From Escherichia phage EC.P1: DNA of 64,000 bases. Location of the stretch: sequence record PQ657772.1, one strand, 5' to 3'. The notes under the pieces were generated by a model. The model made no database searches, was not told the DNA's origin, and saw nothing but the letters and a program-made list of their open reading frames with translations. Both the position numbers and the translations under genes were made by a program. Shown one piece after another: positions 32,328-36,347 of this stretch; positions within the stretch are counted from its first letter, which is position 1, and every line of letters starts with the position of its first letter.

Positions 32328-32841
32328 CGATGTTCATCGCCAATAAGTTAATATACAAATTACTGTTAAATGCAATCTGCAATTCCATATAGAACTGAAT
32401 GATAGCATAGTCAGGGTCAGTACACGATAGTTGAAAACACTGTTCGTCAAATGCATTGTAACTGTACTTAGGGATGTGAATTTCACGCTTCAAATCAGGT
32501 TGACCCCACTTCATCGCATACACACCAATGTTATTGTTCTTTTTCCTTTTCTTAAATGTTAATTGTTGAATATTTCCAGCGTTGTCTAGGAAAATAGTAT
32601 TATTCGACACAGGTGCACCAATAGAAAACAATGATGTATCAATGACGTGTTTCTCACGTATCTCACACTTCTGGAATGCACCATTCCCTTGTAACAGTTT
32701 ATGGAAATCGTACTTCTCATTAACAACAGTACTAGGATCAATTAATCCAGTACTGCATTTTTTCAGTACTGGTACGATAGTGCGAATCTTTTTTGATAAA
32801 TCTTGTAATGCATCATAATCATTAATGTTAATTTTTCTCAA
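32305..32841 (-). CDS. hypothetical protein, paralog family A
   Basis: Motif DEQCFQLSCT. Confidence 0.55.
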   Translation of the reverse strand: MRKININDYDALQDLSKKIRTIVPVLKKCSTGLIDPSTVVNEKYDFHKLLQGNGAFQKCEIREKHVIDTSLFSIGAPVSNNTIFLDNAGNIQQLTFKKRKKNNNIGVYAMKWGQPDLKREIHIPKYSYNAFDEQCFQLSCTDPDYAIIQFYMELQIAFNSNLYINLLAMNIDEVFKNI

Positions 32842-33284
32842 AAGGATGCCTCTTCTATAGTAACGAAATCAACTAACCTATCAAGTTTTTCAGTGTCTAG
32901 ATAAAATATATCCAGTACTGACTTCTGATATAGTACACTAAATGTACATAGATTGTCAAGTGTTCCTTCATTATAAACAGTACTTCCCTGGAAGTACCCT
33001 TCTTCTGTACTCAGAGATAAAATATCAGAAATTTTAAAAGATTCTTCATTCTCATGACGCTCTATCGTAACTTCATCATATTTTCTGTTCAATGAAATAT
33101 AATCGTATGCTAATTCAATAGTACTACAGTTGTTGTTGCTAGTGTCAAATAAAGAATCAATTGTAATCTTCGTACCATTAGAAACTTCTCTTCGTTCATC
33201 ATCTACGTATTCAGGATTTTCTTTGAAGAACTTAACAACTTTTAGAATATCATTTGCTTTCTTGATTGCACTTTCGTAACTCAT
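32838..33284 (-). CDS. hypothetical protein, paralog family A (subgroup A1)
   Basis: N-term MSYESAIKKA, motif EEGYFQGSTV. Confidence 0.55.
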   Translation of the reverse strand: MSYESAIKKANDILKVVKFFKENPEYVDDERREVSNGTKITIDSLFDTSNNNCSTIELAYDYISLNRKYDEVTIERHENEESFKISDILSLSTEEGYFQGSTVYNEGTLDNLCTFSVLYQKSVLDIFYLDTEKLDRLVDFVTIEEASF

Positions 33285-33724
33285 TTTTTTCTGGACTCCA
33301 TATATATCACCTGATTTAGTTCATATACATAATCTAAATCAATGAATATAGAATTATTAAAGTTCTCTTTCAGGAATGCATTAAAAACTACTAAAGCTCT
33401 TAACGCCCCATTTGGGTATATAGTACTGTACTGGAAGTAAGCATCTTCTGAATTTAAAAATAGTACTTCTTCTTCTGTGAATTCAAAATATTTTCCACCT
33501 TCCTCTATATAATAGAAAGTTCCAGAATCCCATACGAAGTACTTGAATTCCAAATCATAATCATGGGACTCGTACTTATATTCATTACCTAATCCTAGAA
33601 TATCTGTACCAACACTTATAGTACTAATATATGCCCCTTTATAGTCTAAGTACTTTACATTATTTTGAAAGAACTTTACTATATTAACTAATTCTTCAGC
33701 GTGCTTAAGATCACTTTCGTACAT
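33281..33724 (-). CDS. hypothetical protein, paralog family A (subgroup A1)
   Basis: Motif EDAYFQYSTI. Confidence 0.55.
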   Translation of the reverse strand: MYESDLKHAEELVNIVKFFQNNVKYLDYKGAYISTISVGTDILGLGNEYKYESHDYDLEFKYFVWDSGTFYYIEEGGKYFEFTEEEVLFLNSEDAYFQYSTIYPNGALRALVVFNAFLKENFNNSIFIDLDYVYELNQVIYMESRKK

Positions 33725-34038
33725 TATATTTCAATCTCTATATATTTTTGGGTAATTAAGTAATCCCAGTAGTACTTCACTTGTTTTTGTATCTCAAGTA
33801 AAGCATAAAAATTAATTCTCTTATCCCATACAAGTGATTCCTGAAAAAGAAATGTTTCATGATCATCTCTGTAATCACATTCAAGGAAGTCAGGAATATA
33901 ATCACAATCGTGAAGATATTCAATCATTAAAGATTCATTACATCTTCTAACGGCAAGGTGCTGGAAATTATCATGATCGAAGAAATACATTAAACTAATT
34001 GTACCTGGAATGTACTGAATACTGTATAATAATTTCAT
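33724..34038 (-). CDS. hypothetical protein, paralog family A (ELFQESLV subgroup)
   Basis: Motif ETFLFQESLVWDKRI. Confidence 0.55.
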   Translation of the reverse strand: MKLLYSIQYIPGTISLMYFFDHDNFQHLAVRRCNESLMIEYLHDCDYIPDFLECDYRDDHETFLFQESLVWDKRINFYALLEIQKQVKYYWDYLITQKYIEIEI

Positions 34039-34478
34039 CGTTTACCCTTATGTGCTGCACGTACATATTCATAATCCAAATAAAATCTTGTGCTATCAAT
34101 ACTTTTAAAGTACCACATAATAACTAAAGTATCTAGTACTTCATCATCATACAAAGTACTATTCTGAAAGTAATACTCTTCACTATCCCACGGGCCTTTC
34201 AGTACTTCAAAGTTCAATTTTAAAGGTCTGCTGCGATTATAAAAACGGATTTCACCACCATAAGCATAACTGATAAATTCTGCATCTGGATTGTATTGTG
34301 AAAAATCTGCGGGACTTTTGGAATTCAACCCAAGAATAACTGTAGTTGTAGCAAAATCACAATCCTTGTAGTAGTTACCATTCTCGGCTTTGTATACTTC
34401 TTCGAACTTCCCAGCCTTAATATCTTCAATATATGCCTGTAGTTCTTTTGCTTTATCAAGAGCACTTCGTAATGACAT
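34035..34478 (-). CDS. hypothetical protein, paralog family A (subgroup A1)
   Basis: MSLRSALDKAKEL ... GPWDSEEYYFQNSTL. Confidence 0.6.
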   Translation of the reverse strand: MSLRSALDKAKELQAYIEDIKAGKFEEVYKAENGNYYKDCDFATTTVILGLNSKSPADFSQYNPDAEFISYAYGGEIRFYNRSRPLKLNFEVLKGPWDSEEYYFQNSTLYDDEVLDTLVIMWYFKSIDSTRFYLDYEYVRAAHKGKR

Positions 34479-34944
34479 TATCTTCCCCTACAGTATTCTC
34501 TACGTATTCATAATCGAAATAGAAACTATCAGAACCAATACTTTTAAAGTACCACATAATTACAATAACATCTAATTCTTCTTCATTGTACACAGTACTG
34601 TTCTGGAAGTAATATTCTTCACTATCCCACGGACCTTCTAGTACTGAATACGGAATGATTGTGTCATCATCATCGTAATCAGGGCTGTAAATTATAATAT
34701 CTTCATCTCTACAATAACTAATGTACTGATTGTACATATGATATTCACAGTCATCAGTATCACCCGTATCAGTGTGTAGTACTAACGTTTCTGCACATAT
34801 CTCTGACTCATCATAATCGTCGCGGTCTTTTACAAAAAATTCAGTATCAGATGTTTTATACACACCAGGCACTGAACCTTCTTGTACCATAATCATGTAC
34901 TCATGAATCTTCTTTGCTTCTTTCAATGCACTTTCTAATGACAT
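34456..34944 (-). CDS. hypothetical protein, paralog family A (subgroup A1)
   Basis: MSLESALKEAKKI ... GPWDSEEYYFQNSTV. Confidence 0.6.
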   Translation of the reverse strand: MSLESALKEAKKIHEYMIMVQEGSVPGVYKTSDTEFFVKDRDDYDESEICAETLVLHTDTGDTDDCEYHMYNQYISYCRDEDIIIYSPDYDDDDTIIPYSVLEGPWDSEEYYFQNSTVYNEEELDVIVIMWYFKSIGSDSFYFDYEYVENTVGEDNVITKCS

Positions 34945-34946
34945 TA

Positions 34947-35387
34947 CTAATCCCCTGTACTTAAATATTCACATGCTCCCCAGTCAAGGAAGAAGGGTTC
35001 AAAATTCAATTCCTTAAAGTACCACAAAACAACCAAGGAATCAAGCATTTCTTGGTTAAAAATAAGACTCTGTTGGAAGTAATACTCTTCAGTACCCCAC
35101 GGCCCATCAAGTACCCCGAAGTCAACAGGTGTATTTGATGTGTCAAAAGTAATCTTAGTACCTGGAATATATACAAAAAAACTAGTATATTGACTACATG
35201 AAGAGTACTGTATAGTATTGTCTTTATCATGGCCCATAAGTAAAATATCATCAGAGTATGTCTTTATACCTGATAGATAATACTCATTACCAAATGCACT
35301 TACTTTATCACCATAGAAACCACTTTTTATGTTATCGTGGAAGTGATGTATTTTGTGTGCCAGTTTAAGTGCACTTGCTAAACTCAT
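34947..35387 (-). CDS. hypothetical protein, paralog family A (subgroup A1)
   Basis: MSLASALKLAHKI ... GPWGTEEYYFQQSLI. Confidence 0.6.
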   Translation of the reverse strand: MSLASALKLAHKIHHFHDNIKSGFYGDKVSAFGNEYYLSGIKTYSDDILLMGHDKDNTIQYSSCSQYTSFFVYIPGTKITFDTSNTPVDFGVLDGPWGTEEYYFQQSLIFNQEMLDSLVVLWYFKELNFEPFFLDWGACEYLSTGD

Positions 35388-35854
35388 ATATCCTCTTTAA
35401 TAACTCGTAGTAGATCCAAGTCCAGATAGAAGCTAGGACAATCGGTATTATTAAAGTACCACAGAATGACAAGCTTGTCAAGCACATATTCCTCGTAGAT
35501 AGTATTCTGCTGGAAGTAGAACTCTTCACTTCCCCAGTCATTATCCAGTACTGAATACGGAAGATGTTTCTCTGCTGCACCAGTTATAATGTCAGTATAT
35601 TGTATTAAAATATCAGCATCACGACAGAAGTACATGTAATTATCTTCCAGATTAACATCACACCCAGTGAGTGTTGTTTCAGAAGAATCTAAGTTTTCTT
35701 CGTACATGTGAATGTACTCACTACTGTCATCGTATATCATTCGACAATAAGCTTTACCTTCCTTGAATAGATACCCATTGAGTCGATTGAGTACTATTTC
35801 CTTTTTACATAAATCAATTAACTTAGCAATTTCTAATGCTCTTTCTAAACTCAT
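35384..35854 (-). CDS. hypothetical protein, paralog family A (subgroup A1)
   Basis: MSLERALEIAKLI ... NDWGSEEFYFQQNTI. Confidence 0.6.
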   Translation of the reverse strand: MSLERALEIAKLIDLCKKEIVLNRLNGYLFKEGKAYCRMIYDDSSEYIHMYEENLDSSETTLTGCDVNLEDNYMYFCRDADILIQYTDIITGAAEKHLPYSVLDNDWGSEEFYFQQNTIYEEYVLDKLVILWYFNNTDCPSFYLDLDLLRVIKEDI

Positions 35855-35855
35855 T

Positions 35856-36347
35856 TTAACCCCTGTTAATACCGTTATCTACAGTTTTCTTTACGTATTT
35901 GTAATCGAAATAGAAGTTCCCAGAACCAATACTTTTAAAGTACCACATAATTATAATAACATCAAGTACTTCATTATCGTATACAGTACTTTGTTGGAAG
36001 TAATACTCTTCACTATCCCACGGACCTTCCAGTACTTCACTCGGAATTATAATGTCATCGGAATCGCTGTCAGTACTGTAGATGGTATTTGTATCATTAA
36101 TATAGACCATGTACTCATTATGCATATTAATGTAGCATTCATAATCATTAGGGTCGGTATCTAGTATGCACGTTTCTGTATCCAGTACGCACGTTTCTGT
36201 ATCTGAGCAGTCATTATAAAGGAGGTTATCCGGTACATAATATTGAGTACTTGTGTCTTTGAAAACACCGTAAACTGAACCTTCTTTTGCCATATTCATG
36301 TACTCATGAATCTTCTTTGCTTTTTCCAATGAACTCTGTAATGTCAT
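35856..36347 (-). CDS. hypothetical protein, paralog family A (subgroup A1)
   Basis: MTLQSSLEKAKKI ... GPWDSEEYYFQQSTV. Confidence 0.6.
   Translation of the reverse strand: MTLQSSLEKAKKIHEYMNMAKEGSVYGVFKDTSTQYYVPDNLLYNDCSDTETCVLDTETCILDTDPNDYECYINMHNEYMVYINDTNTIYSTDSDSDDIIIPSEVLEGPWDSEEYYFQQSTVYDNEVLDVIIIMWYFKSIGSGNFYFDYKYVKKTVDNGINRG

Follow-up and report, generated by a model that had tools for sequence, protein, structure and literature searches.

The 64,000-nucleotide stretch of Escherichia phage EC.P1 analyzed here (sequence record PQ657772.1; hereafter the window) carries at positions 32838-36347 a run of small paralogous genes, which the first-pass annotation had described as a tightly related sub-array of seven genes. 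The seven open reading frames (ORFs), with left ends at 32838, 33281, 34035, 34456, 34947, 35384 and 35856, are present exactly at those coordinates. All seven are on the minus strand and begin with ATG, and most starts are preceded by a purine-rich Shine-Dalgarno-like stretch. The genes and their surroundings are all on the minus strand and densely packed, stop and start codons often overlapping. The locus is a diverged tandem-duplication array, composed of a five-member subfamily, two distant cousins and one short-form member, within a much larger array of paralogs which we call the FQ superfamily. In a megablast search the region 32000-37600 exhibits 96.7% identity to Escherichia phage Ecwhy_1, and 87-96% identity to 121Q, PBECO4, phAPEC6 and about 30 other records of 320-386 kb. 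The host genome of the array is thus that of an Escherichia jumbo myovirus of the genus Asteriusvirus (121Q/PBECO4-like). Genes are designated below by their left coordinate where needed (g35856 for 35856-36347). The features of the locus and of the enclosing array are the following.

35856-36347, minus strand: paralog 1 of the tight five-gene subfamily, 163 amino acids (aa), isoelectric point (pI) 4.05, phrog_9317 (E-value = 7e-64)
35384-35854, minus strand: paralog 2, 156 aa, pI 4.22, phrog_9317
34947-35387, minus strand: paralog 3, 146 aa, pI 4.58, phrog_9317
34456-34944, minus strand: paralog 4, modelled with AlphaFold2, 162 aa, pI 4.05, phrog_9317
34035-34478, minus strand: paralog 5, 147 aa, pI 4.97, phrog_9317
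33724-34038, minus strand: short-form superfamily member, 104 aa, phrog_32253, containing ETFLFQESLVWDK
33281-33724, minus strand: distant paralog, 147 aa, phrog_12674-like
32838-33284, minus strand: distant paralog, 148 aa, phrog_12674
18426-48349, minus strand: enclosing FQ superfamily array, 42 paralogs of 103-212 aa, median pI 4.84
29569-37530, minus strand: gap-free gene block (every intergenic gap is shorter than 45 bp), presumed single transcription unit, holding all eight locus genes
29543-29572, minus strand: perfect sigma-70 consensus promoter inside the superfamily array (TTGACA-18-TATAAT, extended TG)

A five-gene subfamily with a diverged middle

Five of the seven genes (34035-36347) carry the same two conserved segments, the helix M(S/T)LxSxLxxAxxI at the N terminus and, in the C-terminal part, the block VLxGPWxSEEYYFQxSxxYxxxxLDxLVxxWYFK. 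They match one another with 31-56% identity (BLASTP E-value from 1e-14 to 4e-56), and each matches phrog_9317 over its full length (E-value from 5.5e-50 to 7e-64; profile positions 1-154/160 or more). The mean pairwise identity in their alignment is 0.42 for residues 1-22, 0.19 for residues 23-97, 0.57 for the C block (residues 98-145) and 0.14 for the tail. The conserved-variable-conserved layout proposed for the sub-array is therefore real in these five genes, and their middle does differ in length (69-82 aa) and in cysteine content (one to four residues), as had been noticed. The most divergent C block among the five is that of g35384 (DNDW..EEFYFQQN..WYFNN). That the variable region might be a frameshift artefact is excluded, the orthologs being intact ORFs of the same length in eight other phage genomes.

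In the DNA sequence, the five-gene block repeats with start-to-start spacings of 437-484 nucleotides (nt), and the C-block segment exhibits 63-82% identity between the five copies. This spacing, combined with this level of identity, is the signature of an old tandem duplication without recent gene conversion; the copies arose via local tandem duplication. In g35856, a 21-nt tandem duplication at 36154-36195 encodes TETCVLD/TETCILD, and small internal duplications such as this one can be a source of length change in the middle.

The two remaining genes named in the first-pass annotation do not belong to this subfamily. The genes g32838 and g33281 exhibit 27% identity to each other (E-value = 1e-9) and reach the five genes only at BLASTP E-values of 6e-5 to 7e-4. 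Their best family is phrog_12674 (E-value = 3.7e-40 and 1.1e-14, respectively), and they fall outside phrog_9317, against which they score only 1.5e-10 and 5e-6. Both lack the GPW and WYFK motifs, so that the helix and C block ascribed to all seven genes hold for the five but not for these two; a looser N-terminal helix (MSYESAIKKAND, MYESDLKHAEEL) and EE/ED-x-YFQ-x-ST are kept. Moreover, the run of named genes is split by the short-form gene at 33724-34038, which had been omitted. The sub-array is thus tight for five genes only, and the corrected membership of the locus is five plus two plus one.

The FQ superfamily

A scan for the motif E-E-x-[YFL]-F-Q-x-S found it in 28 ORFs of the window. 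An iterative hidden Markov model (HMM) search seeded with the seven genes settles at 42 ORFs, all on the minus strand and within 18426-48349, a count to be read as at least 42. In the alignment of these 42 sequences, the only invariant residues besides the start methionine are the F and Q of (S/T)EExxFQxS; the two glutamates and the serine of the motif are nearly invariant, across paralogs otherwise sharing 11-25% identity. When each sequence was left out of the model in turn, all 42 were recovered (E-value of 1.7e-3 or less; 41 of them at 7e-4 or less), with E-values from 1.7e-28 to 4.5e-4 for the eight locus genes. None of the 1302 reversed or shuffled controls was matched by the family HMM, even at E-value<10. 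Given the clean controls and the leave-one-out recovery, the similarity within the superfamily is neither due to chance nor to profile drift. PHROGs scatters the 42 paralogs over at least 24 families, every one labelled as of unknown function. There, phrog_9317 and phrog_12674 hold the five genes and the two outliers separately, whereas here the HMM, with its leave-one-out support, joins them into one superfamily.

The array is interspersed with a few unrelated small genes. In several of its parts the nearest relatives by BLAST are adjacent (36357/36713/37069, 42466/42813, 43114/43697 and 47655/48011). The proteins are acidic: the pI is 4.05-4.97 for the five genes and has a median of 4.84 in the family, against 5.48 for the other genes of the window. 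Short-form members are without the N-terminal helix.

Predicted structure

The protein encoded at 34456-34944 was modelled with AlphaFold2 from a 43-sequence family alignment. The model is a confidently predicted single domain with a mean predicted local distance difference test score (pLDDT) of 86.5 and a predicted template modelling score of 0.83. It consists of a helix at residues 3-22, seven strands within residues 28-97, short helices at 99-103 and 109-115 (the latter corresponding to EEYYFQ), a helix at 121-135, a strand at 141-144 and a helix at 146-154. The middle had been regarded as a variable insert, possibly a surface loop; in the model it instead supplies the seven strands of a compact single domain, with pLDDT 81-94 over most of its length. 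The poorly defined parts are residues 41-50 (acidic, of variable length, pLDDT 54) and the C-terminal tail, and the most variable, length-polymorphic pieces are acid-rich stretches between predicted strands. A 28%-identical family member of 121Q (BFVD model) superposes over its full length (template modelling score 0.76/0.84), which indicates that the topology of the middle is kept in spite of about 19% identity between paralogs. The short-form protein (33724-34038), which AlphaFold2 models with low to moderate confidence (pLDDT 66), has no N-terminal helix but otherwise keeps the order of elements of the full form, running from a beta meander through the FQ helix and a long helix to a terminal strand. 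The model of paralog 4 resembles no solved structure (best Foldseek E-value = 3.3), and a profile search of PDB sequences returned no match at an E-value of 10 or less. Each protein is thus predicted to be one compact alpha/beta domain unmatched among solved structures.

Conservation is concentrated in the N-terminal amphipathic helix and in the C-terminal helical block around FQ, while the strand region and the acidic loops between these conserved helices have diverged almost completely among paralogs. The conserved positions of the N-terminal helix (L3, A6/L7, A10, I13 and M17) form a hydrophobic stripe, and the conserved C block is mostly hydrophobic or aromatic (LDxLVIMWYF, FYLD). The two conserved segments look fold-determining. 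From the hydrophobic periodicity of the N-terminal helix and the hydrophobic character of LDxLVIMWYF, we infer that the conserved helices form a hydrophobic core scaffold and that the diverged sheet and loops form the exposed surface.

Evolution among related phages

We compared the orthologous loci of phAPEC6, Ecwhy_1, Turkey3, SD-15, PBECO4, WPEC3, 121Q and BF17, and later those of A4 and JNE01. The five-gene block is syntenic among the compared phages, each gene having clear orthologs at 85-100% identity; in 121Q the orthologs of the locus are genes 370-377. The gene at 35384-35854 has orthologs in 121Q, A4 (A4_355) and JNE01, and that at 34947-35387 in 121Q and A4 (A4_356). For g34035, g33724 and g32838 there are two lineages each, 68-74% identical; those of g34035 are an Ecwhy_1/Turkey3 type and a 121Q/PBECO4 type with 68% identity. 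In a neighbour-joining tree, every paralog joins its own orthologs from 121Q, A4 or JNE01 and not its neighbours in the array. These separate orthogroups indicate that the duplications predate the divergence of these phages, and are thus older than the Asteriusvirus radiation.

The ratio of nonsynonymous (dN) to synonymous (dS) divergence, by pairwise Nei-Gojobori estimates, is 0.07-0.36 wherever dS exceeds 0.1, with dS up to 0.8. In g34456, g34035 and g32838 the middle has changed more rapidly than the C block, yet its dN, as in all comparisons with an informative dS, remains below dS (0.055 and 0.565, 0.26 and 0.57, and 0.34 and 0.62, respectively). The retained paralogs are under purifying selection, middle included. 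The middle is therefore not hypervariable between phages, as "hypervariable" in the first-pass annotation might suggest: it has diverged among paralogs but is constrained within each.

Related phages do differ in gene content at the locus, as had been suggested for verification, and they do so by gain, loss or replacement of whole genes. The gene at 33281-33724 is present in Ecwhy_1, Turkey3 and WPEC3; its position is occupied in 121Q, PBECO4, phAPEC6, BF17 and SD-15 by an unrelated 102-aa gene. The position of g35856 holds a short-form family member and a 61-aa ORF in Turkey3 and WPEC3, and additional family members occur elsewhere in some phages. The array evolves by birth and death, with whole genes gained, lost and replaced.

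A sliding identity profile across the locus is mosaic, a diverged block at 32.8-34.5 kb lying between flanks of 95-100% identity. Within this block, the first ~20 codons of g32838 form a 60-nt island (33220-33284) whose identity to 121Q and PBECO4 is 98-100%, with differences in 0-1 of 22 codons and a synonymous divergence of 0. Both sides of the island are 8-75% identical, and the rest of g32838, beyond its first ~60 nt, is 68-93% identical to the same two phages. The island adjoins the replaced gene at the g33281 position; it may be a recombination junction or reflect a nucleotide-level constraint at the gene start.

Distribution of the family

The tblastn matches to the five-gene subfamily come from 35 records, all of them phages, and the subfamily has no relative in 185,579 species-representative bacterial and archaeal genomes. 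Among 5.8 billion clustered proteins, matches were confined to Asteriusvirus-type sequences. When 1.84 billion cluster representatives were searched exhaustively with the HMM, 178 clusters (at 50% identity) matched with an E-value of 1e-3 or less; the ten that were traced all come from contigs of about 350 kb or from short fragments. None of these 178 matches carries a fused domain pointing to a machinery. One 773-aa library match (P0071), an apparent multi-copy fusion, was rejected as an unrelated low-complexity repeat protein.

Dense arrays with the same TEE..FQ.S motif are present in a 345,809-bp IMG/VR contig (18 members in 20.6 kb) and in a 108,897-bp metagenomic contig (24 members in 20 kb). 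In the latter (IMGVR_UViG_3300007747_000009, positions 28375-48464), many of the 24 FQ members share the ending FQNSLIY..(N/V)R, which points to recent, independent expansions in a relative not yet sampled. In BFVD, structural matches come only from 121Q, SP27, RaK2, GAP32, Serratia phage BF and similar phages. The superfamily is specific to RaK2-like jumbo phages.

Promoters, gene context and virion

A perfect TTGACA-N16-18-TATAAT promoter occurs ten times in the window, always on the minus strand, whereas 0.3 occurrences are expected from shuffled sequences. One is the promoter within the array (29543-29572), another lies at 12.8 kb, and the remaining eight fall in 56.6-63.5 kb. Several matches at 11 of 12 promoter positions occupy the few intergenic gaps of the array, and terminator-like sites in 28-40 kb are not above chance. 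Since no gap of 45 bp or more interrupts 29569-37530, the locus is probably read in a long polycistronic transcript.

The eight promoters at 56603-63494 (minus strand; spacers of 16 or 17 nt) precede small genes, and two 28-nt promoter sequences are each present twice (58131/58625 and 61207/61478). This segment looks like an immediate-early region with duplicated promoter-gene units. At the other end of the window are genes for a polynucleotide kinase/phosphatase, PNKP (1965-2897, minus strand; phosphatase domain E-value = 1.5e-43) and for a T4 Rnl1-like RNA ligase (3720-4862, minus strand), downstream of the paralog arrays and in the same orientation. PNKP and Rnl1 are a tRNA-repair pair associated with countering anticodon nucleases. 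The phAPEC6 authors tie this pair to evasion of the Prr system. As the array is co-oriented with and downstream of the cluster of perfect sigma-70 promoters, and the same direction leads to PNKP and Rnl1, its genes are probably transcribed early by the host RNA polymerase. A comparable RpoD-promoter region of the related phage CBB has been interpreted as an early, host-takeover region (PMC5259590).

The published virion proteome of phAPEC6 comprises 62 proteins identified by mass spectrometry and includes no gp4xx protein (PMC7247149). The phAPEC6 orthologs of the five genes, gp438c-gp442c, are accordingly absent from it.

Possible functions

The evolutionary and structural parts of our account are far more secure than the functional part. 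The most likely role, although we place its likelihood somewhat short of even, is that of a diversified repertoire of early intracellular proteins binding different host or defence targets. Its members would be early binding proteins, each paralog using its own diverged surface to bind a different host or host-defence target; a different target per paralog would explain the selective retention of dozens of diverged copies. Should the paralogs each neutralise a host factor or defence system of their own, the array would offer a wealth of new inhibitors, and it would help explain the purpose of the extra DNA in jumbo phages.

Several points weigh against a repertoire of this kind. No experiment or homology ties any family member to a function, and the literature on Asteriusvirus, 121Q, PBECO4, RaK2, CBB, phAPEC6 and Sharanji, together with a 2026 jumbo-phage review, gives no function for these genes. 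Searches of Pfam, NCBIfam and PADLOC with the locus genes and all 42 paralogs returned nothing consistent: the isolated, chance-level matches concern single members only in PADLOC (E-value from 4e-4 to 9e-3), two single members in Pfam and none in NCBIfam. With regard to early expression, no promoter lies immediately upstream of the five genes, weaker promoter-like sites exhibit no excess over shuffles either in the window as a whole or in a scan of 28-40 kb, and no transcription data for the array genes were found in the literature searched. The assignment of conserved residues to a buried core and of variable ones to the surface is drawn from sequence periodicity. The invariant polar residues (E, E, Q and S) could mark an active or binding site common to the family instead of being purely structural, and purifying selection on each paralog is equally compatible with roles outside defence. 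As for specific alternatives of the defence type, no significant profile match to known defence or counter-defence families in PADLOC-DB, Pfam and NCBIfam is common to the family members, and no toxin or immunity Pfam domain occurs in the 42 members or the neighbours tested, as would be expected of a polymorphic toxin/immunity array.

A family of adaptors is the alternative that survives best, although we consider it unlikely. In such a family the conserved (S/T)EExxFQxS helical block would dock all paralogs on one common partner, for example a host protease, RNA polymerase or a phage machine, and the variable sheet and loops would recruit different substrates. The real conserved-variable-conserved architecture fits this proposal, as do the invariance of F-Q and near invariance of E-E and S among such dissimilar paralogs, and the recurrence of the same motif in the IMG/VR and metagenome arrays; polar invariants are unusual in a purely structural core. 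On the other hand, the motif may be structural: its helix is predicted with very high confidence (pLDDT 96-97), the conserved residues beside it are strongly hydrophobic, and S-E-E is compatible with a helix N-capping box. Nor is there a known partner, or a fused domain among the 178 library matches that would point to a machinery. The logic would be that of the F-box/BTB adaptor expansions of large eukaryotic viruses. The adaptor and repertoire ideas could be combined, a combination that we regard as improbable: a helical docking module bearing the motif would engage one common cellular or phage machine, while 40-odd diverged faces on a previously unseen fold would each recognise a different host or defence protein. 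If true, this docking-module repertoire would be a phage counterpart of the eukaryotic-virus adaptor expansions, taking up about 8% of a 350-kb genome.

Alternatively, the tandem duplicates may be near-neutral filler without individual function, tolerated by a larger capsid (the ratchet idea). Hua et al. (2017), from whom the ratchet idea comes, propose that genomes can grow by tandem duplication and cite a 121Q array of more than 30 genes (PMC5646251), and individual members are dispensable in some phages. However, the low dN/dS at dS up to 0.8 indicates that each copy is constrained, the ORFs are intact in nine genomes, and both family and motif have been kept in different genera (RaK2, GAP32, Serratia phage BF). 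Mere filler is accordingly quite improbable.

A specificity-swapping module, as the first-pass annotation had likened the locus to, would use the conserved N- and C-terminal blocks as recombination handles, the middle being exchanged between copies or phages. The mosaic identity across the locus between phage lineages is in keeping with such exchange, and the identical island at the start of g32838, beside a replaced gene, indicates that gene starts can coincide with recombination junctions. We nevertheless saw no sign of swapped middles. Each paralog, taken over its full length, clusters with its own orthologs; the divergence between the g34035 alleles is spread over the N-terminal, middle and C-terminal segments (dN of 0.12, 0.26 and 0.19, respectively); the flanking conserved blocks, only 63-82% identical in DNA between copies, contain no long identical tracts; and the replacements observed affect whole genes, an unrelated gene being the substitute in one case. 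The direct repeats in 32800-36400 are only the 63-82% identical paralog blocks, none of which spans a variable middle. No template/variable repeat pair, as in the target of a diversity-generating retroelement, was found in the region; a reverse transcriptase was not sought in the rest of the genome. Exchange of middle cassettes is thus very improbable.

The last alternative, that the proteins are packaged and ejected with the N-terminal helix as a capsid-targeting signal (like T4 IPI-IPIII) or are substrates of a Q-specific 3C/TEV-like protease cut at ExxYxQ, is largely refuted and only barely credible: a conserved N terminus followed by a variable remainder and the superficial resemblance of EEYYFQ to the TEV consensus E-x-x-Y-x-Q and to 3C LFQ sites speak for it, but neither gp438c-gp442c nor any other gp4xx protein is found among the 62 virion proteins of phAPEC6, short-form members entirely lack the helix, Q is followed by many different residues (N, Q, E, Y, G, M, L and others) rather than by G or S, and the motif lies in the well-ordered helix rather than in an exposed linker. 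The idea of a T4-type internal protein was rejected on the basis of the phAPEC6 virion proteome. A TEV/3C cleavage site was rejected because of the variable P1' residue and the helical motif, and we judge the resemblance coincidental.

Comparison with known systems

The pattern of the locus is real, and it is an ordinary gene-family expansion in a large virus; more noteworthy than the locus is the 42-gene superfamily with its unmatched predicted fold. About 30 kb (~8%) of a jumbo-phage genome is spent on one uncharacterised family, and the same holds in RaK2-like relatives. Beside it, at 48339-54749 on the minus strand, is a second, unrelated tandem array of about 29 genes of 65-93 aa. Its proteins have the C-terminal motif LGT[ND][YF]Q[EA]... 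(the LGTNYQ family), and many start with M..L(T/S)..EY. Two further members of this family are apparently embedded in the FQ array (31940-32131 and 32109-32327).

Tandem arrays in these phages have been mentioned before. The array of Hua et al. belongs to the same phage group, almost certainly to the same genome region, and was given the same interpretation by tandem duplication; it is not certain whether it corresponds to the FQ or to the LGTNYQ family. The phAPEC6 paper repeats the point, and according to the RaK2 paper about 10% of the proteins of that phage are paralogues. A comparable expansion in Bacillus phage G comprises about 35 copies of a zinc ribbon (Iyer et al. 2021, PMC7824862). 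The papers on the 121Q-type phages devote one sentence each to the phenomenon, without family definition, motif, structure, selection analysis or function. As it stands, the array is a well-documented, functionally blank case of tandem duplication and divergence, a phenomenon already in the literature in one sentence.

The internal proteins and hyperplastic early regions of T4 are also made of small, non-essential-looking, fast-evolving early genes, some with conserved N termini. The FQ genes are like them in these respects, including a probable early region; they differ in that FQ orthologs are undetected in the virion, there is no protease-site logic, and there is no relationship in sequence or fold.

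Multigene expansions are familiar in large eukaryotic viruses, such as MGF360/505 of African swine fever virus and the ankyrin, BTB and F-box families of poxviruses and giant viruses. The FQ fold is unrelated to these and to that of the phage G proteins, being unmatched among solved structures, and carries no recognisable repeat or adaptor domain; the host role is, for the FQ proteins, inferred only. The likeness lies in the tandem paralogs, dozens in one orientation, whose core is conserved and whose surfaces have diverged, in the presence or absence of whole genes from strain to strain, and in a suspected role in interaction with the host.

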